From NCBI RefSeq assembly GCF_028641065.1, contig NC_073387.1, forward strand, positions 21,700,001-21,764,000: a stretch of 64,000 nucleotides of DNA, in the 5' to 3' direction. A model generated the notes under the pieces. The model saw only the letters and a list, made by a program, of their open reading frames with translations, was not told the origin of the DNA and searched no databases. The stretch is from Leucoraja erinacea (lineage: Eukaryota). The first letter of the stretch is position 1. Each line of letters opens with the position of its first letter. Shown here in pieces: positions 12,169 to 57,006 of the stretch. The position numbers and the translations under genes were made by a program.

Positions 12169-12376
12169 ACCTGCAAATATATGATTATTTGTTTTTGGAA
12201 GATGTAAAGGCTTCCCGAAGGTTACGTTAATTGCATGTAAATTAAATGACTGAGGTCGCGAGTGAAGGGCTGGGAAACCGGCGGCTTGTTTCACGTTAAG
12301 CACCAGCAAGGCTTTTGCGTCCACGCCCTGGAATGCGAGGATGGGCAGCGGAGCTCTGGCTAGATTTCATCACCTC

Positions 12377-15164: not shown

Positions 15165-15290
15165 ATGAACTGCGGTTGCTGGAATCTTGAGCGACACAAC
15201 AAGTGCTGGAAGAAGTCAGCTTGTCATGCAGCATCAATGGAGGGAATGGATAAATGACGTTTCGGGTCGGGACCCTTCTCGAGACTGCAA
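15165..15290 (-). repeat. Penelope-derived terminal-repeat fragment (degenerate hammerhead motif)
   Basis: Minus strand GAGAAGGGTCCCGACCCGAAACGTCA...GATGCTG...TCCAGCAC. Confidence 0.65.
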
Positions 15291-16139: not shown

Positions 16140-16480
16140 CAGTCATAGTGCCATCGAGTTATACAGCACGGAAACAGGCCCTTCAGCCCAACCTGGCAAT
16201 GCCAAAAAAGGTGTTCCATAAATGCGAGTTCCACCTTCCGGCGTTTGGACCAGAATCCTCTAAGCCTTTCCTACCCATGTACCTGTCCAATCGTATTTTA
16301 ACAGTCTGAAGAAGGGTGCTGACCTGAAAGATTACCCATCTCTGCTCTGCACGGATGCTGCCTGACCCGCTGATTTACTCCAGCACTTTTTGTCTGTCTT
16401 TTTAAAGTTGTTATAGTACCTGTCTCACCTACCTCCGCTGGCAGCTTGTTTCATATCCCCATCAGTCTCGGTATGAAATG
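16140..16480 (-). mobile_element. CR1-type 3' end fragment interrupted by a Penelope-derived fragment (16302-16400, +)
   Basis: ATACAGCACGGAAACAGGCCCTTC tail resembles 52862ff; the insert starts GTCTGAAGAAGGGTGCTGACCTGAAA. Confidence 0.65.
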
Positions 16481-17499
16481 TTGCTCTTACACAATGGAAA
16501 ACAGGCACAGCACCGTATGGAGTACATAATTCCAAGAGGATGGTGCATAGATGTTCAATACTTCAATTGTACTTTATTGTTACATGTTCCTTGGTATAGT
16601 AACATTTCCCTTTTGCCCCTTTAATTCCATAAAAATGATAGGCAAGTAAAACTGACATTCTCATCATAGATTTTATCCCGGGAATTAACAGGCGTAAAAT
16701 GCGAATCGTCCTCACTTTCATGTGCATCTAATTGTATTCTGTCTATTAGCAGATTCGCGCAATATCAAATGTGGTCAGGTTTGTATGGAATGTAAACTGT
16801 CTCGTTTAATAGTATTGCAACGGCACCTTACACTGAACGAAGACCTGTTAAGGATGCAACAAATTAACTTTTATTTCACTAGGGAGAGATATATACTAAT
16901 TAGCTGCAACCAATACTTAATGCGGTTCACTCTCTTCATGTGTTTCACATTTTCCTTATCCTTGGAGATTCCTATTTTTCATAGATTAAGAGCTACTCTT
17001 TTCAAATATAATGCTAATGATGTTTGTTTACCTTGGTTCTGCACTGTACTACACCATTGTCAATGTGTATTTGGGGATGTAGTCGAGGTTATATCAGAGC
17101 ATCGAATCACAGCATAGACCATGTTGGAGGAAGTGCGCACGTACCTTTGCCTCACTTGGAAGTGCTATTTACGTCCCCGTATGCCGGTGAGATAAGAGTT
17201 ATGCGACCAAGTGCTGTGCAACCACCAGGTTTATGAGGAAAGGGCTAGGGATTATGGAGAGATATATGAGGAGGGATGGGAGAACAAGGCTATCACGGAG
17301 AACGGGGGTCCACCGGAAAACGTGAAGTGTTGGGAGGAAGATGTGGTGGGGTTCCGCTGTCGCTGATTAAAATGAGGAAGATCATATGCTGGATGTGATG
17401 GCTGGTTGGGATGTAGGGTGAGGATTAGAGAGCTTTATCGCTGCTCGTTTGGAGGGAGGGAATTTGATTGGATAGTTTGCAAAACAGAGCTTTTCATTG

Positions 17500-23537: not shown

Positions 23538-25937
23538 CTACTTAAATGCTAAATCATCCGTGCTGATGTCATTTAGTGGCAATGTCGGATGGCAAGTCGA
23601 TAGAAACAGGAAATCGCTCTTGGACGATTCCGGCGCTAATCGAACCGTATATTGATAAGGATCTGAATTAGCCTGCACCTGCCCAGCTCTATAATAATTT
23701 AGTGATTCATTTGGGACAGGTCTTCCCTGAAATGCGACATCGGAATTTCTCCGCATACAGCAACAATACGTTGCAGAGCTCTGGTAAATAGCATTACTCC
23801 GATCTTGTTTGCATTTGAAGACCACCAATAAGATGATTATTACGAGAAACAAGAGGCTGGTTGATCCTAGAATTAATATTAAATATGTATTGAGATCCGG
23901 AAAATGTTCCACATTTTTCTGTTGAATTGTACGCTCCGAAGGGCTTTCGGTACTGTTCGCAGTGATTGATAAACTGATTGTAACTGTGTTTGAAAGACTT
24001 GGTTGACCATTGTCCTTCACTAAGACCACAATTTTCTGTGTGGGGCCATCGCCTTCTGTGAAAGTTCGGGTTGTTCTGATTTCTCCATTGTGAAGACCCA
24101 TGGTGAAAAGATTGCGATCAGTGGCCTCTGTAATCTCATAGGAAAGCCGCGCGTTCTGCCCTGAATCTTCGTCGTTTGCGACTACTTTGGTGACTAAGTA
24201 GTTTGGATATATAGAGCGCGGTACAGCGGCGAAAGCCGCGGTACCGTTCCACGTGGCTGGCGAAATTATAAAAGGAATATTGTCGTTTTGATCCAAGATA
24301 ATAACTCTCACAATAGCAGTGCTGCTTAGTGACGGGGATCCAGCATCACGAGCTAAAATTGTTATTTGGAAATTCTTCGTTTGTTCATAGTCAAAAGAAC
24401 GCAGAGCAAATATGCTCCCGCGTTGCGAATTTATTGCAAAGTTGGAAGCGTCGCGTACGTTTTCGAGTTTGTCATCCAGAATAGAATAGGCCACGTTTCC
24501 ATTATCGTCCAGATCAGGATCCACAGCGGTAACCGAAGAAACAGAACCGCCCGGAAAATTGTTCTCCATTAAATATATGTCGTATGAAGATTTGGAGAAA
24601 CGTGGGACGTTATCATTTATATCAGATACTGAAACTGTGATGGTTTCAATTGTAGTAAGTGAAGGCGAGCCAGCATCGCGTGCTGAAATGGATATGTTAT
24701 ACTCTGAGATTGTTTCACGGTCAAGTTTCTTGCTGGTCATAATTTTGTAGTGATTAGGCAAAGTCGGTTCCATCTTAAATGGAATATTGACTGGAATTTG
24801 GCACTGAACGAGCCCGTTTTCTCCAGAATCCCTATCGGTTACTTCAAAAACAGCAATTACAGTGTCTGTTACTGCATCCTCTAGTACCACTTTCCTTGCT
24901 GAAGTCAGCTTAATGTCGGGAGCATTATCATTCACATCAACGATACTAACCAGAACTTTAGCATGTCCCACGTTTGGCAGGTTGTCCACAGCTTGTACAT
25001 CAAGTTCATATTCATATGCCGTTTCAAAATCCAATAAACCTGCAACTTTGATCTCGCCCGTTTCAGCATCCAAATTGAACAACGTCCGTACTTTTTGTGA
25101 GGCGTAATTACCAAAAGAATATTTGAACTCTGCGTTAGAACCTTCGTCTAAATCAATTGCGTGTACTTTTATCAGCAGTGTGCCTACGGGTACATTTTCT
25201 AATACGGTAATCTTATATATGCTTTGATCGAATGCAGGTGCATTGTCATTTATGTCTGTAACAATAATAAATATCTTTGTAGTACCGGACCTGTGCGGGA
25301 TCCCACCATCTTCAGCCGTCAATACTAATTCAAAAGACGGATGTTTTTCGCGGTCTAAGGATTTCTCTAAAAATAGATCCACGATTTTACTTCCATCTTT
25401 TCTTGTATGAACTTTAATGCTGAAAAAATCATTAAGGCTCAGGTGGTATTTAGCGACAGAGTTTAAACCAACGTCCGGGTCGTGCGCGCTCTCGAGAGGG
25501 AAGCGCGCTCCCGGTGCAAGTAATTCAGACAGTTGCAAAGAAATGACGTCGGCTGTGAACATCGGCGAATTGTCGTTTATATCTAATATCTCCACCTCCG
25601 CTGGAAAAATGACATCAGGTTTTTCCACCGCGAGATCCAACGAAATGGAGCATGTCGATGCTTCCATGCAAAACTGTTCTCTGTCGATTCTCTCGTTGAC
25701 AGATAAAATTCCGGTCTGTGTATTTACCGCGAAATAATGGTTCATGTCACGAGGAAGCAGTTGCAGTCTTCGGACTAATAATTCACGAACATTTATCCCC
25801 AAATCCTCAGCAATGTTTCCGACAAAGGCACCGATCTCCAGTTCTTCGGGAATAGAGTATTTTGTTTGTCCGCAAACCAAACCGGTGAGACGAAGTAACA
25901 ATACAACACAGAGTGCTGTGCAGTCCACGTTCGCCAT
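23538..25937 (-). CDS. Clustered protocadherin exon C (intact, ends in a stop codon)
   Basis: 799-aa ORF. QTKYSIPEE, CMEASTC, six cadherin repeats, TM (YLILILGS...VVFKC), cytoplasmic YCCC and SSKSDFLFL; upstream CSE. Confidence 0.95.
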   Translation of the reverse strand: MANVDCTALCVVLLLRLTGLVCGQTKYSIPEELEIGAFVGNIAEDLGINVRELLVRRLQLLPRDMNHYFAVNTQTGILSVNERIDREQFCMEASTCSISLDLAVEKPDVIFPAEVEILDINDNSPMFTADVISLQLSELLAPGARFPLESAHDPDVGLNSVAKYHLSLNDFFSIKVHTRKDGSKIVDLFLEKSLDREKHPSFELVLTAEDGGIPHRSGTTKIFIIVTDINDNAPAFDQSIYKITVLENVPVGTLLIKVHAIDLDEGSNAEFKYSFGNYASQKVRTLFNLDAETGEIKVAGLLDFETAYEYELDVQAVDNLPNVGHAKVLVSIVDVNDNAPDIKLTSARKVVLEDAVTDTVIAVFEVTDRDSGENGLVQCQIPVNIPFKMEPTLPNHYKIMTSKKLDRETISEYNISISARDAGSPSLTTIETITVSVSDINDNVPRFSKSSYDIYLMENNFPGGSVSSVTAVDPDLDDNGNVAYSILDDKLENVRDASNFAINSQRGSIFALRSFDYEQTKNFQITILARDAGSPSLSSTAIVRVIILDQNDNIPFIISPATWNGTAAFAAVPRSIYPNYLVTKVVANDEDSGQNARLSYEITEATDRNLFTMGLHNGEIRTTRTFTEGDGPTQKIVVLVKDNGQPSLSNTVTISLSITANSTESPSERTIQQKNVEHFPDLNTYLILILGSTSLLFLVIIILLVVFKCKQDRSNAIYQSSATYCCCMRRNSDVAFQGRPVPNESLNYYRAGQVQANSDPYQYTVRLAPESSKSDFLFLSTCHPTLPLNDISTDDLAFK

Positions 25938-26186
25938 TGCGAGAGTGTATGTATTTTACTGATATCCGAATCGGAAACACACGATTTGTTCACCGAGTTA
26001 GGCCAGTACGAGGATCTGCTATAAATATATTAACTCTGAACACAAAAGCAAATTAAAAAAAACCTCACCCAATTTAACTGATCACAGCTGTATGCTGTAA
26101 ACGCAGTCACCGCGTCTCTTTGCCGGAGATTCATTCTGTGTTTGATAATTATGGCGGAGGGTCGATCCCTCGCAGCGTCATAGCTT

Positions 26187-29030: not shown

Positions 29031-30940
29031 TAACCACTGTCAGCTGAAAACACACATGTTTGAAAAGGATCAATTTGTTTTCATGTATTCATGTCCATGA
29101 TCCACGCATTTCTAATCCGCAGCAAACTTAGGCTGCCCATCACTTCTGTTCTTAGCCTCTGCCCAAAGAACTTGTCCAACTATTGACTGACACTATTAAG
29201 TTAAGGAAAATAGTTATTTATTGATTCGATGCAAGTAATGATTAATGTCTTATTGTGTTTATGTTCTAGATGATGTGCACAGTTTCTATTGCCTTTCTCT
29301 TGAAAACTGAATATGCCACTTTGTCCTCAGTCTACGTCACCATTGGCTTAGGAGGGAATCGTAGAAACTTGGATAAGGTGCCATTGTAGCATTTGGGCCG
29401 AGCTTCTCTTGTAGGCTCAGATATAATTGAATAATTTGGGTTTATCTTGACTTCGCCGTTGAATTATCGTGCCCTCCTTTTGCTGCATCATATCCACGTT
29501 TCTTTTGCTCGCCGAAACTGCCCCTGGTCTTTGAATTATAAAAATAGGGCCGGATAGCAAATTCCACAACTGTTACTAACTTCATTTTTACGCACGACTA
29601 CAACAACATAGAATGTGGGAGAAAATATTGCAGTTACACGAATGCTGAAACCGAGCACAGATGCCACCTCAAATCAGAATTGAAATGCCGAAATAGCAAT
29701 CCAGGAATTCACATTCACTTCCTTAATTAGGCTGTGTCATTTTCCTTTCGTTTAAAAGTACAGTTTAAGCTATAATAAATAGCAAACTCCAGCTTATTGT
29801 TCGCAAATGCCACTCAAAAAGGAAATCGTCCAACCTTATGGTTATGTCTGTGTGAAATTGGAATAAAGTCGGTTAACGCTTAATAAACTCTGATCAATTA
29901 ATAGCGACAAATCCGTTAAGTTGTTGCACAATAATTATGAAACTGGACAACTGAGATTTTTCAAAATTTTCGCAGTGCACCATTATTTCCAATGTTCATT
30001 CACTGCATTTGGGGACCGAAGTCCTATTGGGAGAGATATAACGTAGATTGGACCAGGAACAATCGGGCATTCTCATACACACAAAATTATTTAGGTCAGC
30101 AAATATCCCTTTCCCATCCCATCCCATTCTCAAACATTCCTGATTAAAGTGGAAGCAAAGTGTACCACTGATGAATCAAAGTGATACACACTGAAGAAGG
30201 ATGCTTATGGTCCCTGCAAAGTCCACGTTCGTTAACTAAACCCGCAAAAATGAACAAAGAACGTTCGTGCATAACTGATGAAAGGACGCCTCATAAATGA
30301 ATGTCTTAATATTCAAGTGAAGTATGTAGGTGGGACAATATATGGTCTGATTTTGGGTATATGAGTAAAAATGTATTATTTCAGCCATATGATACTTGCT
30401 GAGAGTGCATACAGTGATTATGTGCAATGCTCTGGTATCGTGGGTTCTAGGTATGGTGGGTTTTCTGTAGGAGGAGAGATTTAAATTATTTGACTTATCT
30501 TCACTAGTTATCTGGTCTCTTTGAAAATTAATAATACTTAATGTATTGAATATCCAAAGTATTTAGAACCGGAGGTATAATTTCGAAATGGGGGCTGGTC
30601 AATTTGGGCGATGATGAGTAAACGTAGCTTCATTCACATGGTGTGAAACTTTGGAATTCGGCATGGAGAGGGCTGTGCATGGTCTCATTGGGTTAATTCC
30701 AAACCAAGTTGGCGGTTTTTCCGATATTAATGATATGGTGATACGCGGAGAAAATGCAGACATATAAAAGATCAACCATGATGCCATAAATAGTGGAGTG
30801 GCAACGAGGGGCCAATGGTCCAGTCGTGCTCCCTCTTTTAAAATCTATTATTATAATATCATGGGGTCAAGGAAAGAGCGTTCACGTCGCGGCCCCGTTT
30901 CCACCAACCTTTCCACCACCACGCACAAGAAGCACAATAA

Positions 30941-31820
30941 TAGGAGGGTTGCATGTAAGGTCACTGGGTCATAGGGCTCGACGCACGGAGCCGCTAAATC
31001 CAACTGGAAGACATCCGTCACTTCCGGTATATGTTATTAATGCTAGAAACGCGTACATTCCTACCTGTTAAAAACCGCCAAAATGTTGAATATTTGCGCT
31101 GAAATGAATTGTGGGAGTCGGGGTAAGTGTGCGAGACATGTACCCAACTTTAGAATTCCAAAGGTGAAGCGAAATGAAGGTATAGAGAAGCGAGAACTGA
31201 AGGGACTACAGCAGCTAAAGTGCTTGGTAACATTGAAAATATTGGAAATTATCGCGTTTGCTCACTGCATTTCATCAACAGTAAGGCATTGTTTGTGTTT
31301 TTTCTTGATTCCTTTGATATCTAAAAATTCTCAGAAGTGATAAATCTGGCTGTAAATTTTTCTTCAAATGCGTTTTCATTTTGTATGTAAAAACCCACTT
31401 GGGAACCATGGGCGATTTAAAAAAATTACAGCGAGGTTTATCACTTCTGAAACTTTTTAGATGCCAAAGTATTAAAACAAACCCACAAATAATGCCTTAG
31501 TTGATGAAATGCAGTGAGCAAACGGCCAATGTTCGCTAAGCACTGTGGCTGTTGTTGTCCCTTGAGCTCTAGCTTCTATCTACCGTCATTTCTCCTCACC
31601 TTTGGAATTGTGAAGTAGGCTAAATGTCTCACACGCTTATCCCGATTTCTTTAATTATTTATAGCGCAAAAATTGACAATTTTGGCGGGGTTTAACGAGC
31701 CCGCTACGTTTGAAACAATGGTAAGTGCCTACCTGCAGCACATCGCGTGTAATCCATTTGGAGTAGCGTAGCAACAGTACGGGTCATGGGTCGTGACCCG
31801 ACTGCCGTGAAACCTCCCTA
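30941..31820. mobile_element. Palindromic non-autonomous DNA transposon (MITE-like)
   Basis: Long inverted arms 31067-31361 / 31419-31696; imperfect ~15-bp termini TAGGAGGGTTGCATG / CGTGAAACCTCCCTA with TA at both ends; no coding capacity. Confidence 0.75.
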
Positions 31821-32178
31821 TACACAATTGTATGCAGATACCGAGAAGTGTGTTCAGCTCTTACTGAACAACTTCTAATCTTGTGTGTGGACTCGATAAG
31901 GAGAAGATTATAAGAACATGTTGTTACTTTGGTAAGATAGCTAAGTTGCAAATGTTTTTCTTGCATCAAGGACAATTTGAGGGTATTTGTGTGAGCATTT
32001 AGTTTCAAATCAAAATAGGGCATACCGATGAATAATTTCCAGCGGGTGGACTGGTGTAGAGAAGCGGCTGCGCTTCCAAGTTCACAGTTCTCCAGCATCA
32101 CATGTAGGTAAAGTGGCATCATGGATAGGTGAAGTTGTAAGGAAGGTGTGTGGTCTGCTTACATTCATCGGTCGATGC

Positions 32179-33750
32179 ACCATCAACCTTGCCAAGTGTC
32201 AGTTCGACCTTACTTCTATCAACTTCCTCAGCTACCACATCAACCAGCATAGAGCACTCCCACTCCCAACCAAGGTCGATGCCATCCGCAAGTGTGCCAA
32301 ACTCTCTACTGTGAAAGGACTCCAAGAATTTGTTGGCATGGTCAACTTGCACAAGCACTTCGTGCCAGCAGCTGCCAGGATTATGCAACCGCTGTTCAAG
32401 GCCCTGACCAAAGAGGCAAAATAGATCATTTGGGATACGCGGCCACATCAGACAATGCCAAGGAGGCAATGGCAAAGGCAACGACGCTGGTACATCCATA
32501 GGCCAACGCACCAACAGCTCTCATGGTCAAAACATCTGGCACAGCCGTGGGCTGAGTGCTTCAACAACTGATCAATGGTAGCTGGAAGCCCTTCCCCTTT
32601 TCAGTCGTCACCTGAGACCCCCCAGTAGAAATACAGCGCTTTCGACCGGAAACTCCTCGCTCTCAACCTGGACATCCGGCATTTCCGCTACTTCCTCGAG
32701 GGCAGAGATTTCACAACTTTCACCGACCACAAACCACCCACGTTTGCCTTTTCCAAAGTGTCTGATCCTTGGCCAGCCCGACAGCAGCGCCACCTGACCT
32801 ATATCTTTGAATACACGACTTGCGTCCAGCACATCGCAGGCAAGAGCAACCATGTCGCAGATGCATTTTCCCACATTGTCCCACATCCACGCTGTGGCCA
32901 CAGGTATCGACTACACGGCCGTGGCTGCCGCCCAGCGTGAGGTGGAACATATGATCACCTACAGCACCGCCACCTCAGTCCTACTGTTGGAGGATGTGCA
33001 ATTCCGGCCCGATGACACCACACTCACCTGTGACGTGTCTATGGGGCAGCAAAAACCCATCATCCCCGCTGCTTGGCGCCGCCGGATGTTCGACATGATT
33101 CATGGCCCAGCTCACCCTTCCATCAAAGGCACTGATGGCAGCCAAGTTCATGTGACACGGGTTGCGTAAACAGGTCGGCAACTGGGACAGAGCGTGCATC
33201 CCCTGTCAAATCTCCAAAATTCAGCGACACATCAAGGAGCCGCTGCAGAACTTTGCCCTGACACACCGGCGTTTAGACCACATCCACGTCGACATCGTTG
33301 GATCACTGCCCCCCATCCACAGGTGTCATCCACCTCGTCACCATCGTGGACAGATTCGCGAGATAGCCGGAAACCATCACACTCTCGAATACCTCCACTG
33401 CGACGTGCACATGCTTTCACCGCCCACTGGATCGCCCGCTTTGGCGTGCCGGCGGACATCTCGGACAGACGTGCGCAGTTCATCTCCGAGATGTGGTCAG
33501 CAATGGCCCGGTAGCTCGACACTAAGCTGCACCGCATAACGGCCTACCACCCGCAAGAAAACGGTCTAGTGGAACGCATTCACCGGCACCTGAAGGCATC
33601 TCTCAATGCACGGCTCACAGGCCCAGACTGCATGGACGAATTGCCATGGGTCATGCTATGTATAGCACTGCCCCAAAGGAGGACCTGGCAACCTCTACGG
33701 CCGAGCTGGTGCACGGCGCCCGATTTACGGTCCCAGGGGCCTACATCCCA
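32179..33750 (+). mobile_element. Defective Gypsy/Ty3 pol fragment (RT end, RNase H, integrase)
   Basis: INLAKCQF...FLSYHI, KYSAFDRKLLAL, FTTFTDHKP, NHVADA, zinc finger H..H/CIPC, and DDE motifs HIHVDIVG, SDRRAQF, YHPQENGLVER; many stops and frameshifts. Confidence 0.9.
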
Positions 33751-34017
33751 TAACAGAAAATACATGGAATTGTGACCTGAAAACTCTTCAGAAAGCGACT
33801 GCAATAATTGAACTGTTTTCCCCATCGTGCTCTATAGTGTGGATTAAATAGAATGCCACTGGTTGCCTTGATGCAAAGGGTTCTTTGATCATTCCTATCA
33901 TTTATATCTGTATCCTTACTTTGTATTAATAATAAAAGAACATATTCAGAAAAGAAAAACTGATTATTTAAAGACTTGAAAACCTTTTTGTCCAGGCACC
34001 TAAACGTGCATGTGTAA

Positions 34018-34150
34018 TATGTAGGAAGGAAATACAGATGCTGGTTTAAACAGAAGATAAACACAAAATGCTGGAGTAACACAGCGGGACAGCAGCACTG
34101 TGGAGAGACGGAATGGGTGACGTCTCGGGTCAAAACCGTTCTTCAGACCG
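34018..34150 (-). repeat. Penelope-derived terminal-repeat fragment
   Basis: Minus strand GGTCTGAAGAACGGTTTTGACCCGAGACGTCACC...GTTACTCCAGCATTTTGTG. Confidence 0.7.
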
Positions 34151-35210
34151 GTCAGCCCGTCAGAAAATATAATGTCACCTTATATTTTCTAAGTTAATTT
34201 AACTTTCAAGCCAGAGTTATGGTGCGAGTTGTTGTTCTGCTGGACCTCCACAGGTTTGAATCTCCTATTTTTCTGTTGACGCTGGTAACTAGTAGTTGCA
34301 ATTGTCTTGCCCAAAGCCACAATGTAAAAAAACGCGCACTTTCTGCATCGGGTGCACTGATTAAAATCAGCATCCCTAGCCTTCCACATAGTTGTAACGG
34401 CGAGTAATATTTATTTCCTTCAAAAATTACGCACTGATTTCATTTTTACGCAATGATTTCATCAAATACCCACACTATGCTTCGGCATTGAAGAGAAACG
34501 CATATTTTTCTGGTTTGGGGTTTATCACACATTGTGCCATTGTATATTATCTAACATTAATAAGTGGGAAACTATGCTTATAAGCTATCATTTTTCACTG
34601 CATTCATAACCAAAAAGGAATATTCCACAGGAAATTAGTCACAAAGACTAAGATATAGAAAGCCATGGGCCCAACTCCTCCATGTCAACTAAGCCTTTCC
34701 AATACACTTGGTGTTCTGCAATTTCACATGGACCCAATCCAGTTAATGAATTTTCTAGACATTAACTTCTTTCATTCAAGGTTTTTAATTAAATCAGACC
34801 AATTCCGGAGCTCTTTGAGCCATGTGCCATGCAAAAATATGTTTTACTTCAATTTTTGTGCTTTCGGCCTCATTGATCGTTCTCAGCATTGCAGGTTTGC
34901 GGACGTTTTCAATTAAAGCGCACAATTAAATATCGGTTTATTATCATTCATGTTATCAATGATAATCTGAGATGTGATCAATCTATCAGTGGCAGCGAAA
35001 TTTCTCAACGGTGAATTTACATACTGTACATCTGATAATTAAAAACTAAAAATGCCAGGCTGCATCTGTGCGAAAACAAACCAAGCAGAGGCTGGGGAAT
35101 GATGGGTAGAACAAACGAAATATTATTGTGAGATTGAGCCTGGGGTGTCACCAAGATCAAGAGACACAAGCAACGGCAAGTTTACAACAAGAAGAAACAA
35201 AAAAACCACA

Positions 35211-35310
35211 GCGGCTGAAGAAGGGTCCGACCTGAAAGGTCACATATCCATGATGTACAGAGATGATCTACCCGCCCATCTGAGTTACTCCAGCACATAT
35301 TGTCCTTTTT
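35211..35310 (+). repeat. Penelope-derived terminal-repeat fragment
   Basis: GGCTGAAGAAGGGTCCGACCTGAAAGGTCAC...CTGAGTTACTCCAGCAC. Confidence 0.7.
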
Positions 35311-36228
35311 CACCAAGATCAATTATAGATTTTCACTGGATTTGTGAGAGAATACTTTACTTTTAAGTCGGAGAGGTAGAGTTCAGGAGAAAGGGCAATT
35401 CTAAAATCGGTGGCAGAAGGTGACTCCTGATAGGTTCGCGAGGGCCAATAGAGAAAAAAACATAATTGTTGGCTATTGGGAAACAACATAAACAATGGCT
35501 ATTGGAAAACTAAGACGAAGAGCGAAAGGTAGTATGTTGTGAAAATGGGAACAGATCGAAGAGTGGCAAATGAGGTAGGAACACCGAGAAAACATTACAG
35601 CAGAGCTGGCCAGGTCAAAAAACTAACGGGGGCGGGGAACGAGTGAGGATCAAATAATATGACATTATTTTGATTCGGTTTGCGGACTTCTTGCTTGTTT
35701 GCTCTCCTCAAACTGCACTTTAACAAATCACATACCATTCCCAAACAGCAGAATGATGTATGCAACCCGCACTTAGCGTTTGACACAATACTGGCAAAAA
35801 TAACACAGGTATTTTGGTGACCAGCAAATCGAATTTTGTCAGTTTTCACCTAGTCTTTTTTTATGAGTGGATTTAGAAATTGCAAACTTTAATCTATTGA
35901 GTAGAGTTTAGTTTATTGTCATGTGTACCGAGGTACAGAGAAAAGCTTTTGTTGCGTGCTAACCAGTCAGCGGAAATCTATAGGCGCAAGATACGTACTT
36001 GTAATAAATCGTGTCATGATTTGCAAATACGAGAGTTGAAATCAGCGTGGCGTATTACTGAGAAAACAATTGTCCCATGGATGATTGGATGAACATGCGG
36101 AGATTATGAAGCCTTCGAGCCTGTACTTGCTGGAGTTTTGAAGAATGGGCAGATTGGGGTTTGGGTCTCATTGACATTTACTGGATAATGAAAGGCCTAT
36201 ATAGAGTGGACGTGGAAAGGACGTTTTG

Positions 36229-36608
36229 ATAGACAATAGACAATGGGTGCAGGAGTAAGATATTCGACCCTTCGAGCCAGCACCGCCATTCAATGTGATC
36301 ATGGCTGATCATCCTCAATCAGTACCTCGTCCCTGCCTTCTCCCCATATCCCCTGACTTCGCTATCTTTAAGAGCCTCATATAGCTCTCCCTCGAAAGTA
36401 TCCAGAGAACCGGCCTCCACCGCCCCCCGAGGCAGAGAATTCCACAGACTCACAACTCTCTGTGTGAAAAAGAGTTTCCTCATCTCCGTTCCAAATGACT
36501 TACCCATTATTCTTAAACTGTGGCCCCTGGTTCTGGACTGCCCTAACATCGGGAACATGTTTCCTGCCTCTAGCGTCCAAACCGTTAATAATCGTAGAAG
36601 TTTCAATA
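36229..36608 (-). mobile_element. CR1-type LINE 3' fragment
   Basis: MFPMLGQSRTRGHSL...FFTQRVVSLWNSLP; (CTATTGT)n tail; same family as 12440-14130. Confidence 0.88.
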
Positions 36609-36722
36609 ATCGCTTGGGTAGTTACACCCCAGCGGTATGAATATTGACCTCCAATTTCAGGTAGTCCTTGTTTTCTCCCTCCTTCCCCTCCCCTTTCCCA
36701 GCTCTCCCACAAGCCCATTGTC

Positions 36723-36761
<39 letters not shown>

Positions 36762-36865
36762 ACACACATCAGTCTGAAGAAGGGTCTTGACCTGAAACGT
36801 CGCATATTCCTTCTCTCCATAGATGCTGCCTCATCCTCTGAATTTCTCCAGCATATTTGTCTACC
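36609..36865 (+). mobile_element. Penelope-like element 3' fragment (GIY-YIG C-terminus remnant + terminal repeat)
   Basis: CGCTTGGGTAGTTACACCCCAGCGGTATGAATATTGAC..AATTTCAGGTAG reads RLGS(L)HPSGMNID..NFR*, the L-x-P-x-G-[LM]-N end of PLE endonucleases; followed by a C-rich tract and the hammerhead motif. Confidence 0.72.
36771..36804 (+). ncRNA. Minimal type I hammerhead ribozyme motif
   Basis: CUGAAGA + A + helix II GGGUC-UU-GACCU + GAAA + CG + UC (cleavage position 36801); helix III is reduced to the palindrome ACGU and helix I is very short. Confidence 0.6.
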
Positions 36866-38364: not shown

Positions 38365-41125
38365 AAGTTGGAGGGACTTATGCTACACAGAGCTGATAGA
38401 GTAGCCTCGCTAGCTGGTAAGGCAAGGGGGGGGGGGGGGGCTGGCTGTGTATGTGAACAGATCATGGTGCCGGGATGCTGTGGTGATTTCCACCTACTGC
38501 TCACCCCACGTGGAGCTAATGACTGTGAAATGCCGACCCTTCTACCTACCCAGAGAACTAACAGCTGTCTTCATAACCGCTGACTATGTACCACCGAGCG
38601 CGGACGTGAAAGAGGCTATGACAGTGCTCTATAACAACATCAGTGAGCAGCAGAGGGAACATCCAGATGCTTTCTTCATGGCAGCGGGGGACTTCAACCA
38701 GGCAAGTCTCAAATCTGTTCTGCCTAAATTCTACCAGCACGTGAACATTGCAACCAGGGGGAAGAACAAACTAGACCTGGTGTACACCAACATTAAAGAT
38801 GCATATAAAGCAGCCCCCCTCCCCCATATCGGCAACTCTGACCACTTAGCGGTCATGCTCACACCTGCATATAGACCCAGGGTGAAACAGGACAGGCCAA
38901 CGGTCAAAGATGTCAGAACATGGCCACAGGGAGCAACGGCAGCACTACAGGACTGTTTTGAAACCACACAGTGGGCCATCTTCAGAGAGGCAGCAACAGA
39001 CGACAGTGGCATCAACCTCCAAGAATATACAGAATCCGTCATCGCATACATCAACAAATGTATTGAGGATGTAACGGTGGTAAAAACCATCAGGAGGCGT
39101 GCCAATCAGAAACCTTGGCTAACTGGGGAAGTGTGTTCCCTACTGAGAATCCGGAATGCGGCATTCAAATCTGGGGACAACGAAGCATACAAACTGGCAA
39201 GGGGTAACCTATCCCGGGGGATCAGGGAAGCGAAGAGGCTGTACGGACAAAAGCTCAATAGCCACTTCGAAAATGAAAAAGACACACGCCGCTTGTGGCA
39301 GGGATTTCAGACCATCACTGACTACAAGCCTCCCCCGATGCGGATATGCCAAAGCAACCCCTCCCTACCAGATGAACTGAACGAGTTCTACGCACGGTTT
39401 GAGGTTAAAAACAGCACCCAGACACGTGCACCACTGCCATCTCCCAGTGACCAGTCGCTCAGGCTGTCCGCAGCCAGAGTTAAAAAGGCCTTCGCCAGCG
39501 TCAATCCACGCAAAGCTGCAGGGCCGGACAACATTCCTGGATGCGTTCTAAGAGACTGTGCCGAGCAACTGAAGGATGTCTTCACAGACATTTTTAACAT
39601 CTCACTCTGCCAGGCAGTAGTGCCGAATTGTCTTAAGAGTGCCACCATCGTCCCTGTACCGAAGAAACCAAACCCAGCCTGCCATAACGACTTTCGACCA
39701 GTGGCCCTAACACCCATTGTAATGAAGTGTTTTGAGCGACTAGTTATGCAGCACATCAAAAACAGTCTACCTGCCGACCTAGACCCACTGCAGTTCGCCT
39801 ACAGAGCCAACCGATCCACAGAGGACGCAGTCTCAACAACACTGAACCTCGTGTTGTCACATCTCGATCGGAAAAACACCTATGCCAGGATCCTCTTCAT
39901 AGACTTCAGCTCCGCTTTCAACACAATCATCCCGCAGCAGCTGGTGGAGAAGTTGGAGCTGTTGGGGGTTGATGCTGGCACATGTAGCTGGGTCCTGAAC
40001 TTCCTGTCGCAGCGGCAGCAGACAGTCAGGGTGGGCAGTAGGACATCAAAAACGATAGCCGTGAGCACTGGCTCACCCCAAGGCTGTGTCCTAAGCCCCC
40101 TTCTGTTTAGTCTGCTGACACACGACTGTACTGCCAGACTCAATAACAACGTCATCAGCAAGTTCGCTGTTGACACAACAGTAGTGGGTCTCATCAGTGA
40201 CAACGATGAATCGGCGTACAGGATGGAGGTGGAGCTGCTCACAGGTTGGTGCAAATCCCACAACCTCATTCTTAACGTGGGAAAAACTAAGGAGATGGTG
40301 GTTGACTTCAGGAGGGCGGGGAAACAACACCATACACCTCTGCACATCGACGGAGCTGATGTGGAAAGGGTCAGCAGCATGAAGTTCCTAGGACTACACC
40401 TGTCTGATGACCTGACGTCCACGGCCAACACCACAGCTCTGGTCAAGAGAGCCCAGCAGCGACTTCACCCCCTCCGAAGACTACGGAAAGCAGGCCTCCC
40501 CACCACACACCGACGGACTTTTTACAGGGGGACTGTTGAGAGCACACTGACATACGGCATCACTTCCTGGTCCGGGAGCTGCAAGGCGTACGATCGTCAC
40601 CAACTGGACAGGATAGTGAAGACCGCAAGCAGGATTATTGGTGCTCCACTCCCCTTCCTGCTGGACATATACAAGAAGAGATGCATCAACAGAGCCATCT
40701 CCATCATCAAAGACCCTTACCACCCATCGCATGACTTTTTCACCATCCTCCCATCTGGGAAGAGGTACAGGAGCATCAGCTGCAAAACCAGCAGGATGCT
40801 CCTCAGCTTCTTCCCACAGGCTATAAGACTGTTAAATGAACTTTCCCCCCTGCCAAGTATCGCGCACAAACACCCCGCTGCCGGTCGGAACGGCTGTTGA
40901 ATGTTATTGAATGTTATTAGAGGGTTAAATTGTTCATGACATGTATTTTAACTTTAATTGCTATTTATTTTGTAACGAAAACTGAATGGACACTGGTTGA
41001 GAAACGTTTTTTTGTTTCCTCTGAGTATGCGAATACTCAGGAAATGACAATAAAGATTTACAATTACAATTACAATTACAATTACAATTACAATTACAAT
41101 TACAATTACAATTACAAATTACAAT
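38365..41125 (+). mobile_element. Rex1/Babar-clade LINE, 5'-truncated, young copy
   Basis: 817-aa ORF 38447..40900 with APE motifs (GDFN, LDL, SDH) and RT motifs ([55 protein letters not shown]); 3' hairpin + TGACAATAAAG + (TACAAT)n tail. Confidence 0.92.
38447..40900 (+). CDS. LINE ORF2-like endonuclease/reverse transcriptase (partial; FADD changed to FAVD)
   Basis: Uninterrupted 817-codon frame; extends upstream (LMLHRADR...GKARGGG) across a G15 frameshift at 38426-38440. Confidence 0.8.
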
Positions 41126-41482: not shown

Positions 41483-42850
41483 AATTAGTATTCAGATAAA
41501 GAATTTCATAATTCACAGCATATTGAACTTTTTCAATTCTTGACCGAAAAAAACAGCAGGCTTAATCACTAGTATATTAATGATCAGTAGATTTGGAAAT
41601 GTTAGGAGTATTAAGGAAAATTGGACTAAGTAAAACACTCCGACGAATGACGGAGCAGGATGGGGCCTAATTCTTCACATCTGCTTCGGTTTCATATTGT
41701 TTTTAAACGTAGCCACATAAATAACGCATGTAACTTCATTCTGCACTGAGCCGGACCCGTTTAGCAATGATGGCACTGTTGATAATTTGGACACACATGC
41801 CATGCAATATGTACATTTTTTCTTTTGCCACCCTCTGCCTATTTTTAGGTTGTTTAATACAGAAGCGTTATGACTCACATTCACGTTGAGGTCTGAACGG
41901 AAATTCCCATGAAGATCTTGATGCAATCTGCCTTTAAACGGCCAGGATAAATATGTAATCAGTTCCTACAATTGTCCAGGATAGACTGATATATCGAGCG
42001 AATTTGTCATCTGCTGGGTATAAATTAAGTTATTTACACGTGTAACATCTTAATTTCGAGAAGTCCCCAGGTATTGGATGGTATTGCAGGGTAGAACCTT
42101 GTCAAATTTACGGATACGTAAGTGCAACACGTAGTTTCAATTTTATTTCCAAGTTTATTAATATATTTAACTACATTTCTTCGCTCGACGAGAAGAAGAA
42201 ATGGAATCATCTCTACCAAAGATTATTATATAGACAAGTAAAAACAAAACAACAGGAATGTGACAGGAGTTAGCCATTCAGCCAGTCACACCCCTTCCAC
42301 TATTGGATAATATGATGACAGGTATTTTACCTCAACTTCCCTGGACTAATCCAATATCCAGTGTTCCATGTAAAGTCCAAAAGTATCTGTTGATCTCTGA
42401 CAAATAAAGTTTTATATATTTCAACCACGTTCCTTCTATACTTTTTTTCCCAAGCTACATACCAAGTCGAATAAAACCATTCGGAGACCGGATTCAAAGA
42501 ATAGTCCCAAGGCACATGGGGATGTATGGGTGTCTGGTTAATCAAAGATAGACAGAAAAACCTGCAGTAACTCAGCGGGTCAGACAGTATCTCTGGAGAC
42601 AAGGTATAGGTGGCGTTTCAGGTCGAGATCCTTGTTAATCGTAATCGTTTTCAGAGTGTGGACCAGGTTATTTTTTGTTACCTAAAATAAATGTTAAATA
42701 ATTATATTAAGGTGTTCGTTTACCAGCCAGCAATTTATCATTGTGCGGTGTTGTGTGCTCGCATATTAACAACAAAATGTCCCCAAAAATGTAATCAGGT
42801 ACAATCAATTTATTCATCCTTATTACGTGCGTGAAGAACGTGCAATTATA

Positions 42851-46569: not shown

Positions 46570-46695
46570 TGTGAAACCTCGGATGCTGGAATCTCAAGTA
46601 AAACATAAAATGTTGGCGGAACTCAATGGGTCAGGCAGCATTTCTGGAGGTAATGGAAAGACGACGTTTTGGGTTGGGGGTCTTCTTCAGACTGA
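46570..46695 (-). repeat. Penelope-derived terminal-repeat fragment
   Basis: Minus strand CAGTCTGAAGAAGACCCCCAACCCAAAACGTCG...ATGCTGCCTGACCC. Confidence 0.65.
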
Positions 46696-47351
46696 TTGCC
46701 TTCTGTTGAAGTCCGTAGCACCCTAAAAGTTGTAACATAAATAGATGGATTCGGATGAGGCGTTAGAAAATGAGATAGCATTGTCAGATGGAATGTAATC
46801 CCGATTAGTGCAAGATGATGGGACGCACAATAGGTATAGATGATCAGCCATGATCACATTGAATGGTGGTGCTAGCTCGAAGGGCCGACCGGCCTACTCC
46901 TGCATCTATTGTTTATTGTCTATTTCTATTGTCTATTGTTTATGAAATATATAGTAAATTAAGGGTATGATCAATATAAATGAATAGAGAGACACAGGGG
47001 AGTAAATCCATATTTGCCTAGACGTTGCGACACAGATGCGTAGGATGATAAACTCATGTAACATGCTACCCTTTCAGAGTTCTGTCATATGATATAATAA
47101 TTGGTCTATTGCAAGTTTACAAACCACTGTTTTGACCGCCCTTGGAGTATTGTGCGCGGTTCGGGTGGCTACATTTTAGAAAATATGTGATTGAACTCAA
47201 GTGACTGCAGAGATATGTGTCTCTGTCTTGTTTAAAGGACTTTGGCTACTCCTGCACCTATTGTCTATTGTCTATATGCCAGTAAGAGGCATAGCTAGGG
47301 CTAAGTTTTCTTTTTGCCAAGGTGGGTGTATCAAAAATAAGAGGCCATAGT

Positions 47352-49150: not shown

Positions 49151-51538
49151 TTATTTTCTCGAATCACAAACATTGAAATCATCCAGAGGCAAGGTGGGAT
49201 GGAGCGTTTTTAAAAATAAGAAATCACTTCTGGATGAATCAGGGGACAGCGCAACTGTATAATTGTACGATTCCCGAACGGGCAGTGTCTGCCCAGCAGC
49301 ATAACTTAATACTGGTTTAGGAACAGCTCTGCGATGAAAGTCGGCAGCTGAATTCTCACCGGTGTAACAACAGATTCTGGAACCATATCCATACACATTG
49401 CTATCTTGCCTACACTTCAGAATAACGAGCAAGACTATTATCAATAGAAATATACAAGATGTTGATCCCAAACCTATGATTAACATAACATTTAATTCTG
49501 AAAAATAAACTGGATCGATTGGCTTATTTGTTAGTTCAGAGAAGCTTTCCGTAGCGTTGGGCAGGAATGCAAGCAGAATTGTGGCTGTACTTGATAGACT
49601 GGGTTGCCCGTTGTCCTTCACCAGAATTACAAGTCTATGTTGAAGTTTATCTTGATCCTTAAATTTCCGAGAGATTCTGATTTCTCCAGAGGGAAATCCC
49701 ACACTGAACAATGTGCGATCTGTCGCTTCCAAAAGTTTGTAGGAAAGGCGTGCATTCTGTCCAGAATCTGCATCAGTTGCAACTACCTTGTGTACTAAGA
49801 GTCCAGGATATGCTGACTGGGTTGCAATCTGTGTCACTTTCGAACTGTTCCATTTTGAAGGCGAAACAATAACCGGAGTATTGTCGTTTTGGTCCAAGAT
49901 TATGACATTCACTGTAGCAGTGTTGCTCAATGAAGGAGATCCAGCATCAGAAGCTTGAACTTGGAACTGGAAATTCTTCAGTTTTTCATAGTCAAAGGAG
50001 CGTAGTGCGTAAATACATCCAGTTTCTGAGTTAACGGTAATCGCACCAGGCAAAGAATCATCTACAGATAAACTCTCCAGAAGTGAATAAGCCACCTCGC
50101 TATTCTTGCCCAAATCACGATCCAAAGCTGTAACAGTAAATATAGATCCGCCTGGTGTGTTGTTCTCCATCAGAAACACACTGTACGGCGATTGTGTAAA
50201 CTTCGGCATATTATCATTTATATCTGATACTGAAATTAGCAATGTTTTGTTTGTGGAAAGAGATGGTAGCCCTGCGTCCCATGCCGCTATAGAAATATTA
50301 TACAACGGAGTACTTTCTCGGTCCAGTGCACCGTCAATGATCAACTTAAACTGGTTGTTCAAAGACTTCTGAAGTTTAAACGGGATATCGGTAGGAATTT
50401 GACAATGTACCTGCCCATTCTCGCCAGAATCACGATCCATAACATTTATTATAGCGACTACAGTCCCGATGGCATCATCTTCACGAACGTTGTTGGATAC
50501 CGAGGTCAGCCTTATTTCCGGAGCGTTATCATTAATGTCAGTTAATCCAATAATAATTGTGGCGCGTCTACCTAATGGCGGTACCCCTTTGTCAAATGCC
50601 TGCACCTCAAACTGGTAAATATTTTTTCCTTCATAGTCCAGTGGACCCTTCACACAAATCTGTCCAGTTTTGGAGTCTAAAGTGAACAACTCTCGGATAT
50701 TTTGAGAAACATGGTTACTGAATGAGTATTTTACTTCACCATTCGCGCCTTCGTCCAAATCGGCGGCATGTACCGTGCTTACCATGGTACCTGAATTCGC
50801 ATTCTCTACAACATTAGCCCTATATATGTGATGGTCAAATACTGGCGCATTATCATTGGCATCCAGGACTGTGATTACAATTTCCGCTGTGCCAGATCTC
50901 GGAGGAATTCCACCGTCAATGGCCGTCAATATTAAATGCAACGTCGACTGCTTCTCACGGTCTAAGGGTTTTTCTAGCAACAACTCTGTAATTTTATCGT
51001 CTGCTTTCTGTTGCTTCAGACCGAAGTGCTTGTTTGAGCTGATTTTGTATGAGGCGACTGCATTTGTTCCCATATCTGCATCGTACGCTCGCTCAAGAGC
51101 AAAGAGAGTGCCTATTGAGGTTATTTCAGAGATATATAAATGGTACTTATCCTCCGTGAATCTCGGCGCGTTATCATTTATGTCCAATATCTCCACGTTA
51201 ACGCGATGTACCTCCAATGGATTTTCTAAAGATGCATCATAAGAAACAGAACAAGTCCAACTTTCGCTGCAAAGAGTATCCCTGTCGATTCGCTCGTTCA
51301 CACCCAATATGCCGTTATGTGTGTTTACCTTCAATAACTGAATCGGGTCATCGGAGACTAGTCTGAAATTTCGTGCGGTCATTTCTCGAATGCTTAGGCC
51401 TAAATCCTCAGCGATATTCCCAACGACGGCACCGAGCTCCAGCTCCTCGGGAATGGAGTACCGAATTTGTCCGCAAACAAGATGCAAGATGCACACAAGA
51501 TGAAGAAACGACAATCCGTGGCGGAGTTCTGTCGCCAT
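49151..51538 (-). CDS. Clustered protocadherin exon D (intact, ends in a stop codon)
   Basis: 795-aa ORF. QIRYSIPEE, CSESWTC, six cadherin repeats, TM, cytoplasmic ICCY and SSRSDFLFLK; upstream CSE. Confidence 0.95.
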   Translation of the reverse strand: MATELRHGLSFLHLVCILHLVCGQIRYSIPEELELGAVVGNIAEDLGLSIREMTARNFRLVSDDPIQLLKVNTHNGILGVNERIDRDTLCSESWTCSVSYDASLENPLEVHRVNVEILDINDNAPRFTEDKYHLYISEITSIGTLFALERAYDADMGTNAVASYKISSNKHFGLKQQKADDKITELLLEKPLDREKQSTLHLILTAIDGGIPPRSGTAEIVITVLDANDNAPVFDHHIYRANVVENANSGTMVSTVHAADLDEGANGEVKYSFSNHVSQNIRELFTLDSKTGQICVKGPLDYEGKNIYQFEVQAFDKGVPPLGRRATIIIGLTDINDNAPEIRLTSVSNNVREDDAIGTVVAIINVMDRDSGENGQVHCQIPTDIPFKLQKSLNNQFKLIIDGALDRESTPLYNISIAAWDAGLPSLSTNKTLLISVSDINDNMPKFTQSPYSVFLMENNTPGGSIFTVTALDRDLGKNSEVAYSLLESLSVDDSLPGAITVNSETGCIYALRSFDYEKLKNFQFQVQASDAGSPSLSNTATVNVIILDQNDNTPVIVSPSKWNSSKVTQIATQSAYPGLLVHKVVATDADSGQNARLSYKLLEATDRTLFSVGFPSGEIRISRKFKDQDKLQHRLVILVKDNGQPSLSSTATILLAFLPNATESFSELTNKPIDPVYFSELNVMLIIGLGSTSCIFLLIIVLLVILKCRQDSNVYGYGSRICCYTGENSAADFHRRAVPKPVLSYAAGQTLPVRESYNYTVALSPDSSRSDFLFLKTLHPTLPLDDFNVCDSRK

Positions 51539-51799
51539 TGTTCTGCGTTAGATTAAATAAATTATCCCAGAATTTTCACGAGCCGTTCGCTGAAATCTGG
51601 ATCTTAGTAGAAATAAGTACAAAATACTGGTCACAAAAATCTGGATATAACATTTAGATTCAATAAAACTCGCACCGAGATTTTCTTTGCAGCCTAGCGC
51701 GGCGATATCACCCGACAGCTTTTGCCTTCTCCTCGCTTCTCTTCCGAGTTCAGCAATGCTGGGGGAGGGGGAGGTAGATCTCTCTCTACGCCTGAGTGT

Positions 51800-54256: not shown

Positions 54257-56144
54257 AGGTCACCCTTCTTCCCACAAGAGATCCAATGGTCCAGCTATCG
54301 CACCAATGCTCCCACTTTTCAGTCAACATTGCTTTTGTATCCGTTCCTTGCCATTCACATTGAGGCACTTTCCCAAACCGAACATAACTATCCTGTATCT
54401 CCAAGCTCCAATTTTCAGAAAATACCGTCTTCTTATGTTTCAATCACTCCTCCCAAACAAAAGTCAAATTCAGAAGAATAAATTCCTTAAATTCGAATCA
54501 GAGAACGCAGAAATACTGAGGTATGTATGGATTTAATTCGACATGTGAATTGCTTCCCTGCAGAGCAAAACCGTTATTTCTATCTTATGCACTTCCCCAC
54601 AATCATCCCCATTATTTTCAAACAAGAGCTCCAAAGGTGACGCACAATGCCCCACTTTTAGTGAAGTCAGCATGTAACCGTTCATTGGGTAAATTGTTTT
54701 CCCAACATTACCCTACCTTTAAATATTTTCCCATACATGGAATCTGCTATTATATTTCGTGAAGTATCTCCAATTTGATTGTCATCTCTATAAACCGGCT
54801 ATTAAATCATACTCAATCCTTTTATCGAATAGAGGAAGATATCATTTAATCTGTTGTAAACTTGACAATTAAATATATAATCGCTGGGGCCCTTCTAGTA
54901 TATGCATTCTACACCATACGTAGATCTTTTACATTCTTCCTTAAATGTCGTGCATCAGACAAGAATGCTATACCAAACGTTAAATGTGAGTGAATTATAA
55001 ATATTTAAAATAACAACTTTCCACTTGAACCTACCTACCAATCAATGTATCTCAGCATTCGGAACAGGGTATAAACTAATCTCCGAACGTTTTATGACAC
55101 TAACAATGTGCATGCATATATGCAGGCCTTCATTCCCCTCCATTTTACATTTCTAAAATAATCTTAAATAATAAATAACTGAGAAACATAAATGTATTAA
55201 AACACACTTATTTTGGTGACACAAGTTGAAATGTTGCTCAGCCAGAAGTAATTAATATGTGTATGCCTTAGATATCTGCTGAGTTACTCATCATGCTGGG
55301 ACCATCTTCAGCCAATGCGATTTAATCCATGCGGTATGGAGAAGAAGGCAGGATATTGCAAAAGGCGTGGAACCAAGCACCATCATTGAAATAGTATGGA
55401 AGATGTAGCATATACATCTTACTTAGGAGCAAACTGTATATTTCGCCACACTCTTCCCTTTGTAGCTGTAATATTGTGGTCTGTTCAATATTGTGGACAA
55501 TTGCCAAGATATTTCGAGATCACATCAATCTGGGAAAATCCGATCTGGATAATTACCACTCAATGAGCTCACTCTCAATCATCACCAAACTGATGGAAAA
55601 ATGTAATTGACATCACCGTAAAAAAACATTTACTCAACATTACCCTGATCACCGATAACCAGCATGTTTCAAGACAACTAGACTGCATTCCTGATCAGGA
55701 CTTGTTCCCCAAACTGGAATTCTAGAGAAGATGTTGAACTAACGGCTCTTGACATCAAAGCATTACTGTACTGCGTGTAGTAAGTATAAAGAGCCTCCGG
55801 TAAACTGAAGTCAAGAGAATCAAGGGGAAATATTTCAATCGTTGGAGCCAACCCGTGCGTAAAGTAATGCGACAATGCTTGTATGAAAGATTAATCATCA
55901 AAGTCGACACATCACCTAAACCACATCACCAGACTGTGTACATGGCCGGCTGCTTGACAGACAACCTTCCTTCCATTATAAAATGAAAGGTAGGTTTACC
56001 TGGTCAGTGCACCATTGTCAATTCGAGGCAATATCCCTCAATAAATGGAACAGTGTGTGCTAGCATGCCCGCAATTCCAAAATTAATTTCAAATATGGGT
56101 GGCAGAGAACTAAGCAACACTGTATTAAAACGCATTAAAAATGT

Positions 56145-56245
56145 CAGATGAACACAAAGTGCTGGAGTGAATCAGCGGGTCAGGTAGCATCTCTGGGGAA
56201 AAAGCAAATGTGCAAAATTCGGGTCACGACATTCCTTCAGACTGA
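56145..56245 (-). repeat. Penelope-derived terminal-repeat fragment
   Basis: ACACAAAGTGCTGGAGTGAATCAGCGGGTCAGGTAGCATCTCT...CTTCAGAC on the plus strand. Confidence 0.65.
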
Positions 56246-56869
56246 AAGTAGGGAGTGGGGGAGGGTGGGTGGGAGGGGGAGGGTGGGTGGGGGGGGAATG
56301 GGGTGAATGAAGAACTGGAGGCAAGAAATGTGCAGGACCAATCTAGGCCAGGAACAAATTACCTCAGGCAGGGTTGAGCCCTGGTAGACCTATTGTTGGC
56401 TCTTAAAAAAAAAATACAAATACTTATATTTAAAAAAAATAGATAAACAAACAAATTAACACAATCAAAGACTGCCTCGATCCCTGACACACTCCATTTC
56501 CCTCATTGGTTAGGATTATTAAATTTATTATTTTATATTACAATGCTGTCTTCAATGTAGATTCACCCCTTTGTTATTGTTGAAAAACAATTTGAAAGTG
56601 TTCTCGAGTGATGCTTGTCAAAACGACGATTTAAATGTTTGCATTTCCTTACCTATTCATACTCTGCATTCATTTGCTATGTTGGTTAAGGCATCCATAA
56701 TCATCAGGACATTAAATAAAATATTTGCATTACCTACACTAAATGCCACAGTGGAATTCATGTATTCATCCATTTGCATGTCAAATTTATGTGTGCAAAG
56801 TCCGACCAGATGAAAGTGCACTCTTTAAAAACGGACATTAATTAGCTTAAAACTACAAATCTGAAGCAC

Positions 56870-57006
56870 TGACATCAGTCGGAAGAAGAGTCTCGACCCG
56901 AAACGTCACCCATTCATTCTCTGCAGAAATGATGCCTGTCCGCTGAGTTGCTCCAGCATTTTGCGTCTACCTTCCATTTAAACCAGCATCAGCAGTTCTT
57001 TCCTAC
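56870..57006 (+). repeat. Penelope-derived terminal-repeat fragment
   Basis: CAGTCGGAAGAAGAGTCTCGACCCGAAACGTCACC...GCTGAGTTGCTCCAGCATTTTG. Confidence 0.72.

Follow-up and report, generated by a model that had tools for sequence, protein, structure and literature searches.

A probable 5′-truncated Penelope-like element end with a minimal hammerhead motif in the protocadherin cluster of Leucoraja erinacea

RESULTS

The window, by which we mean the whole stretch of 64,000 nucleotides analysed here, lies in a protocadherin (Pcdh) cluster. Protocadherin variable-type exons are found on its plus strand at 23538–25955 and 49151–51547 and on its minus strand at 2259–4814 and 9669–12366; the remaining window exons are on the plus strand, as are the first-listed matches in the two flanks. 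Two of the exons (9669–12366 and 57281–59699) are each divided between two frames.

A fragment on the plus strand at 36610–36865 reads as the 5′-truncated 3′ end of a Penelope-like element (PLE), composed of an endonuclease C-terminus, a pyrimidine tract, a hammerhead motif and a pLTR end. It was assigned by its identity to related copies elsewhere in the genome, 87% to locus L012 over 257 nt and 70% to locus L124, which belongs to a young group described below. The first-pass annotation had noticed a GIY-YIG-type C-terminus ahead of a ribozyme-like core, and such a C-terminus is indeed present as a broken remnant (36613–36651): three-frame translation places the peptide LHPSGMN at 36622–36642, separated by a frame break from the preceding RLGS, and by tblastn the remnant agrees with the C-terminus of the element in 10 of 13 residues (E = 6e–5); the same end is found in relatives with a Pfam GIY-YIG match. 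It is followed by a pyrimidine tract with a poly-C run (36660–36768), which in long copies, too, separates the ORF end from the hammerhead, and by the initiator-like TCAGTCT at 36769–36775. The latter, which we take to fit the initiator consensus, coincides in copy-end mapping with a family-wide hot spot of 5′ ends and is a candidate transcription start. The minimal type I hammerhead motif, recognised by a descriptor and by a published alignment, occupies 36772–36803, with a predicted cut after 36801. Here CUGAAGA (36774–36780) and an extra A (36781) precede helix II (GGGU/ACCU, 36782–36793), GAAA stands at 36794–36797, the palindrome ACGU at 36797–36800 and C17 at 36801, and helix I is just 2 bp long. 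The core of this copy, called 36774 below, is intact, as had been claimed: it passes the full descriptor (core, helix II, 2-bp helix I, ACGU palindrome), with the G10.1–C11.1 pair of helix II decayed to a G–U wobble. A competing hairpin is predicted by folding at 36778–36814, in which the core and the 5′ strand of helix II pair with downstream UUCCUUC.

The fragment begins exactly where a 4.4-kb intergenic duplication stops. The duplicated block (32179–36609, plus strand) is derived from just past the window end, within the Pcdh cluster, and has 96.7% identity to 63723–68124 (window numbering; L153); it contains two further copies of the family. A host repeat at the block end runs on in the paralog and is interrupted at the 36610 locus. 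Duplication of the block by the PLE itself was considered and rejected: neither a flanking target-site duplication nor an inverted pLTR was found at 32179–36609.

The first half of 36610–36865 has 2258 first-look candidates genome-wide, and the 126 bases 5′ of the pyrimidine tract match at thousands of genome places; in most of the fetched loci that match those bases the hammerhead part comes directly next. Copies reaching into the ORF, like this one, are a minority (16 of 213 sampled). Frames from loci fetched with the upstream part of the fragment give Pfam GIY-YIG matches, one of them above the curated cut-off, and a protein search yields 120,992 first-look candidates. Three long-copy ORFs of 755–844 aa match both RVT_1 (E = 1e–6 to 8e–6) and GIY-YIG, just below the curated cut-offs, and the one frame checked for finer motifs, that of L124, has YIDD, a CX4CxxC linker at residue 622 and LIY-CxxC-YIG. 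The relatives show the single-ORF layout of EN+ PLEs (RT followed by C-terminal GIY-YIG), of which the window holds the C-terminal remnant. The motif lies in direct repeats flanking the ORF on both sides in L124, L131 and L141 and in inverted repeats in L132 and L142. Long copies may carry a tail of ~35 nt, to be compared with the 30–40 nt tail of PLEs; among 35 head-to-head (inverted) pairs this tail is present on a single arm in 26 and on both arms in none. The layout of the long copies (pLTRs on both sides, inverted 5′-truncated copies, optional tail) is the published PLE layout, and the long copies support the proposal that the repeat is Penelope-derived and attached to RT and GIY-YIG ORFs. 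The linker of L124 agrees with the CX2-5CxxC linker of Neptune and Nematis, which makes these the candidate clade. The PLE group of loci L123–L142 is very young; its open frames are 700–1,000 codons long, UUCG caps helix II and the cleavage triplet is GUU.

Two further derivatives of the element should be mentioned. An internal piece of its endonuclease region, without an adjoining hammerhead end, is found in the window at 17094–17435 on the minus strand. At L051:4921–5567 the pLTR end forms short head-to-tail arrays (66–82 nt unit) that start inside the hammerhead, so their units are without a CUGA box.

Thirteen dispersed copies of the repeat had been listed for the window. An nhmmer profile built from nine genomic copies recovers the same 13 positions and strands (13 places at ≥12 bits, 12 at ≥15 and 11 at ≥30) and has no match in the reversed window used as a control. 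The full descriptor is passed by 36774 alone, and a descriptor scan, one of the checks suggested at the outset, separately yields it as the single window site. CUGANGA, GAAA and UH are retained in three copies (16306, 35215 and 36774) and the core boxes are broken in the other 10. Apart from 36774, the boxes are kept at 16300–16402 (plus strand), where the palindrome is lost, and at 35213–35310 (plus strand), the nearest same-strand neighbour of 36774, where helix I is damaged and GG stands in the place of the palindrome. Broken or decayed copies on the minus strand lie at 5149–5218 (core broken), 15193–15287 (CUGA box broken), 34037–34151 (GAAA broken; within the 4.4-kb block), 42534–42636 (beginning inside the motif), 46583–46696 (G12 and helix II broken) and 56139–56245 (with a pyrimidine tract ahead of it). 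Two decayed arms at 8235–8322 (minus strand) and 8329–8413 (plus strand) make up a head-to-head pair. The least diverged copy (9%), at 56869–56990 on the plus strand, has a mutated U4, and a marginal 40-nt fragment with a broken core at 5091–5130, also on the plus strand, scores 14 bits. All positions come from nhmmer, and the state of the core boxes from an alignment of the 13 copies to the motif.

Exact 32-base forms of the motif are present in 8,447 and, for the young group, 13,260 genome copies (21,707 together) and in none of the controls. A genome sample of 800 kb, made up of eighty stretches of 10 kb at round coordinates of 26 contigs, contains 318 copies of the repeat, which extrapolates to ~870,000 genome-wide, and the 18 descriptor-intact motifs in 600 kb extrapolate to ~66,000. 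At the threshold of the sample the window has 12 copies versus 25.4 expected; its copies are divided into six on the plus and seven on the minus strand, and the window taken with 200-kb flanks does not differ from arbitrary stretches (Mann-Whitney, P-value = 0.28). The idea that the Pcdh locus has been seeded with ribozyme sequence is contradicted by a density below the genome average and by unbiased strands, and enrichment in the cluster was rejected both with flanks, on the P-value just given, and for the window alone, which is under expectation. The repeat has no preference for protocadherin exons, and as a sample of a very abundant family the locus is unremarkable.

The CUGANGA, GAAA and UH core is present in all five sequence-group majorities, as is the ACGU palindrome at 15.2–16.2 that replaces helix III. 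An unpaired base after A9 and the pair G10.1–C11.1 are features of the family, 36774 having G–U at 10.1–11.1. Both this anatomy and the pLTR position match the published alignment, and the motif can be regarded, as first proposed, as a minimal type I hammerhead of the PLE kind. Its 2-bp helix I is shorter than the typical 4–5 bp; variants with 2 bp occur in the alignment of PMC4209133. All 18 descriptor matches in 600 kb belong to this family, and the reversed control has none. The Rfam search that had been recommended as a check returned no hammerhead for the window, L124 or L002 at E ≤ 10, a result that is not surprising, since the motif lacks helix III.

Conservation of the motif was followed in 194 of 350 copies, those that cover it, clustered on downstream columns only. 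Between five groups none of the 11 core columns varies versus 17 of 59 downstream columns (Fisher exact test, P-value = 0.035). With seven groups, A replaces G12, which lies in a CpG, in one group of 15 copies, and the same comparison loses significance (P-value = 0.19). Six between-group changes fall within the motif, namely C17 to U, two in the loop and three that create wobbles; each of them keeps the descriptor, while the random expectation is 26 of 96 for single changes and 13 of 32 for transitions; a two-sided compensatory change in the helices was not found among them. In single copies G12 decays like other CpG sites, with A in 46 of 193; the figure for a CpG further downstream is 35 of 192. 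Among copies selected on the downstream part alone, core and flank are equally worn. Protection of the core in single copies, which a lower decay of core A (4.4% versus 10.3%) had seemed to indicate, was rejected, as the difference vanishes with downstream-only picking. The pattern is consistent with a motif that is under constraint in source elements but not in their copies.

Folding predictions, which ignore co-transcriptional folding and protein, give the 36774 monomer a minimum of –9.3 kcal/mol versus –2.8 kcal/mol for the hammerhead form, with a probability of helix II of ~0. This probability is near 0 in 36774, older and young forms alike, and in the dimer the double-hammerhead form is far worse than the predicted minimum. 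The competing hairpin is thus predicted to dominate the 36774 monomer. In an arbitrary sample, one of 183 copies begins at +28, the base after the cut, and none at +27 or +29, so 5′ ends of copies defined by cleavage were rejected. A search of sequencing runs listed none recorded as RNA among those with the sequence, which is evidence in neither direction. RNA was taken from four raw runs labelled as related species and mapped to a young element (57,654 reads). No pile-up of reads is seen at the cut site at a depth of thousands in these poly(A) or single-cell libraries, which are insensitive to cut ends and perhaps from other species; one pile-up of read beginnings was observed, far from the cut site. 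A GT..AG joint is absent from the best 15 of 125 RNA joints in the same four runs. According to the accessible text of Cervera and de la Pena (2014, PMC4209133), a single minimal hammerhead gives no cleavage and dimers give low cleavage. The hammerhead of an anole PLE is described as cutting only with protein and as dispensable for insertion (Frangieh 2024, PMC11167929), and the accessible text of that paper reports no reads ending at the hammerhead cut site of the element PAc. Activity of 36774 in place is unlikely, because it has no intact same-strand partner nearby and because the competing hairpin is predicted.

In the same arbitrary sample, 70 of 183 copies have their 5′ end between –10 and –1, counted from C3. 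As a guard against alignment artefacts we retrieved 63 young copies out of the first 64 listed, all from one contig; they had been chosen for the motif from –2 onward, and starts inside the motif are invisible in this set. Thirty-five of them start at most 10 nt upstream of C3 (29 at 2–5 nt and six at 6–10 nt), around TCAGT, and the start rate is ~0.08 per base in the hot spot versus ~0.002 beyond 20 nt. A target-site duplication of at least 8 bases adjoins 15 of 39 short copies versus 2% in mismatched pairs; as this short class includes ~4 copies that extend further, the mapping of the 63 copies is the primary count. G precedes 13 of 24 starts at –2/–3, a weak excess (P-value = 0.012 versus an assumed 0.30). 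The 3′ ends of the young copies fall at +88 to +97 in 32 of 63 and at +124 to +134 in 23 of 63.

DISCUSSION

It is very probable that 36610–36865 is the 5′-truncated 3′ end of an endonuclease-bearing PLE whose pLTR carries a minimal type I hammerhead motif, that this motif is likely selected in source elements and that the 13 window copies are likely inert fossils. Hammerheads in Penelope pLTRs are already known, and the locus itself adds little. The family is useful for the question of what role the hammerhead has in PLEs, since it offers a young group, long open frames and >13,000 identical motifs. Its copy ends, known at the nucleotide level, agree with the in vitro model of 2024, in which priming is internal and the RNA uncut, and suggest a start site, open to test, at the 5′ edge of the ribozyme.

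By analogy, the two 3′ ends of the young copies seem to correspond to the two internal RT starts of PAc, which bound its tail (PMC11167929). The simplest reading of the 5′ hot spot suggests run-off of cDNA at a capped 5′ end, with the start at the hammerhead. If the skate element behaves like PAc, its protein would bind its own RNA and nick the target, reverse transcription would begin at either of two internal sites, ~95 and ~130 nt 3′ of C3, and the uncut RNA would be copied through the hammerhead. Most cDNAs would likely run off the RNA 5′ end at TCAGT, before the hammerhead, and produce solo copies of 100–135 nt, and longer copies such as 36610–36865 would come from read-through or from tandem transcripts. 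Cutting by the ribozyme would require a partner and the help of the protein, and would come later in the cycle. We tentatively extend this to a possible, still doubtful, scheme in which the initiator for transcription is directly joined to the hammerhead's first bases, the ribozyme within the first 30 nt serves as a protein-triggered decapping switch, and internal priming 95–130 nt downstream together with run-off at the cap explains the near-million tiny uncut copies. Should this be true, copy ends would constitute a genome-wide map of the start site of the element, with tens of thousands of copies intact.

The hot spot could also be produced by stopping of the RT or by a splice acceptor, the pyrimidine tract followed by CAG, and not by a transcription start; this is possible but we would not count on it. 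A C-rich tract and CAG do lie directly upstream, and in D. virilis the 3′ end of an intron maps to the 5′ end of helix I (PMC4209133), and this intron begins 46 nt after the transcription start. However, the peak of starts is 6–7 nt before the C-tract begins, target-site duplications, where found, abut the start with no common upstream exon, and the best 15 RNA joints out of 125 lack the GT..AG expected of splicing. The G that precedes 13 of 24 starts at –2/–3 is also, if weakly, what a copied cap would give.

Less probably, the copies of 100–135 nt form a separate non-autonomous family, SINE- or retrozyme-like, which is transcribed from an initiator of its own and depends on the PLE protein for mobilisation in trans. 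Short copies are in the majority, their 5′ end is fixed and they have target-site duplications, retrozymes have been proposed to derive from pLTRs, and a few short tandem arrays exist (L051). Yet short young copies share their motif variant with the pLTR of long elements, and the great majority of copies are monomers or pair head to head instead of forming head-to-tail arrays. It should be noted as well that insertion of PAc needs sequence within the first 172 nt of the ORF, 3′ of the pLTR (PMC11167929), while the short copies have no body sequence.

It is very unlikely that copies in Pcdh introns are ribozymes, active or co-opted, whose cutting of pre-mRNA affects the expression of variable exons. 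The copy at 36774 retains all descriptor positions and is sense to the plus-strand variable exons 23538–25955 and 49151–51547, and RNA containing the repeat is abundant in the mapped runs. But one intact copy among 13 is close to the genome-wide rate (27 of 194), neither enrichment nor strand bias is seen, 35215 as the nearest same-strand copy has GG for the palindrome, and 36774 itself combines the wobble at 10.1–11.1 with a predicted competing hairpin; a published single minimal hammerhead also failed to cleave (PMC4209133, accessible text). That the motif is a chance hammerhead likeness inside a repeat, for which one could cite the lack of an Rfam match, the helix I of just 2 bp and a predicted minimum that differs from the hammerhead fold, is hardly credible in view of a pLTR position and an anatomy (extra base after A9, G10.1–C11.1, CG palindrome, NUH) equal to those in the published PLE alignment, of 18 descriptor matches in 600 kb restricted to the family with 0 in the reversed control, and of between-group changes that respect the structure.

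The preferred reading, a PLE with a hammerhead in its pLTR, places the skate family among several known systems. With the metazoan PLE minimal hammerheads (PMC4209133, as far as its accessible part goes) it shares CUGANGAH...GAAA, the unpaired base before helix II, G10.1–C11.1, a loopless helix III with palindromic 15.2–16.2, the pLTR location and the prevalence of single dispersed motifs from truncated elements. It differs by a helix I of 2 bp, a length also found in D. virilis and Culex, by a helix II of 4–5 bp with a YYCG loop, and by far larger numbers: 21,707 perfect 32-mers and, by extrapolation, ~66,000 descriptor-intact motifs, versus ~4,000 motifs in coelacanth and ~9,000 in Xenopus. 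The accessible part of supplementary file 2 of that paper has no row for a shark or skate. With PAc, a Poseidon element of Anolis carolinensis, the family has in common two preferred 3′ ends bounding a tail of 30–40 nt, a pLTR hammerhead, insertion of uncut RNA and the lack of ends at the cut site (PMC11167929, accessible text). In contrast to PAc, the skate element has a CX2-5CxxC linker, which Penelope and Poseidon lack according to the accessible text of PMC8557442, and its family shows a hot spot of 5′ ends at the hammerhead edge, a feature that the accessible text of PMC11167929 does not describe for PAc. The EN+ PLEs Neptune and Nematis (Craig 2021, PMC8557442, accessible text) resemble it in the C-terminal GIY-YIG with internal CxxC, the CX2-5CxxC linker, partial tandems, an inverted 5′-truncated copy and a tail at one end. 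We found no description of this PLE family from a skate or shark in the open literature, although it may well be catalogued in Repbase or Dfam.

Non-LTR retrozymes (Li et al. 2026, bioRxiv 10.64898/2026.07.22.740005, accessible text), reported from one chondrichthyan genome, also have a type I hammerhead and are related to pLTRs. They form head-to-tail arrays with a hammerhead per unit, whereas in the skate the copies are ends of a coding PLE that occur singly or head to head, and head-to-tail units with a complete hammerhead each are absent among the window copies.

Several other elements are present in the window. The two segments 30861–30940 and 31822–31911 on the plus strand make up a ~170-nt retroposon whose 5′ end has an HDV/CPEB3-like ribozyme fold (Rfam CPEB3, 33.5 bits, E = 4e–5, below the gathering threshold). 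It has 1,712 first-look candidates, homology starts at G1, and target-site duplications are found in relatives. An 880-bp repeat with terminal inverted repeats GGAGGG...CCCTCC is inserted in it (30941–31822) and is likely a non-autonomous DNA transposon; its internal hairpin (31312–31471) attracts spurious miRNA matches. Two plus-strand coding regions are of LINE type by inspection, an endonuclease- and RT-like open frame of 828 codons at 38414–40900 and an RT fragment of 251 codons at 12766–13521.
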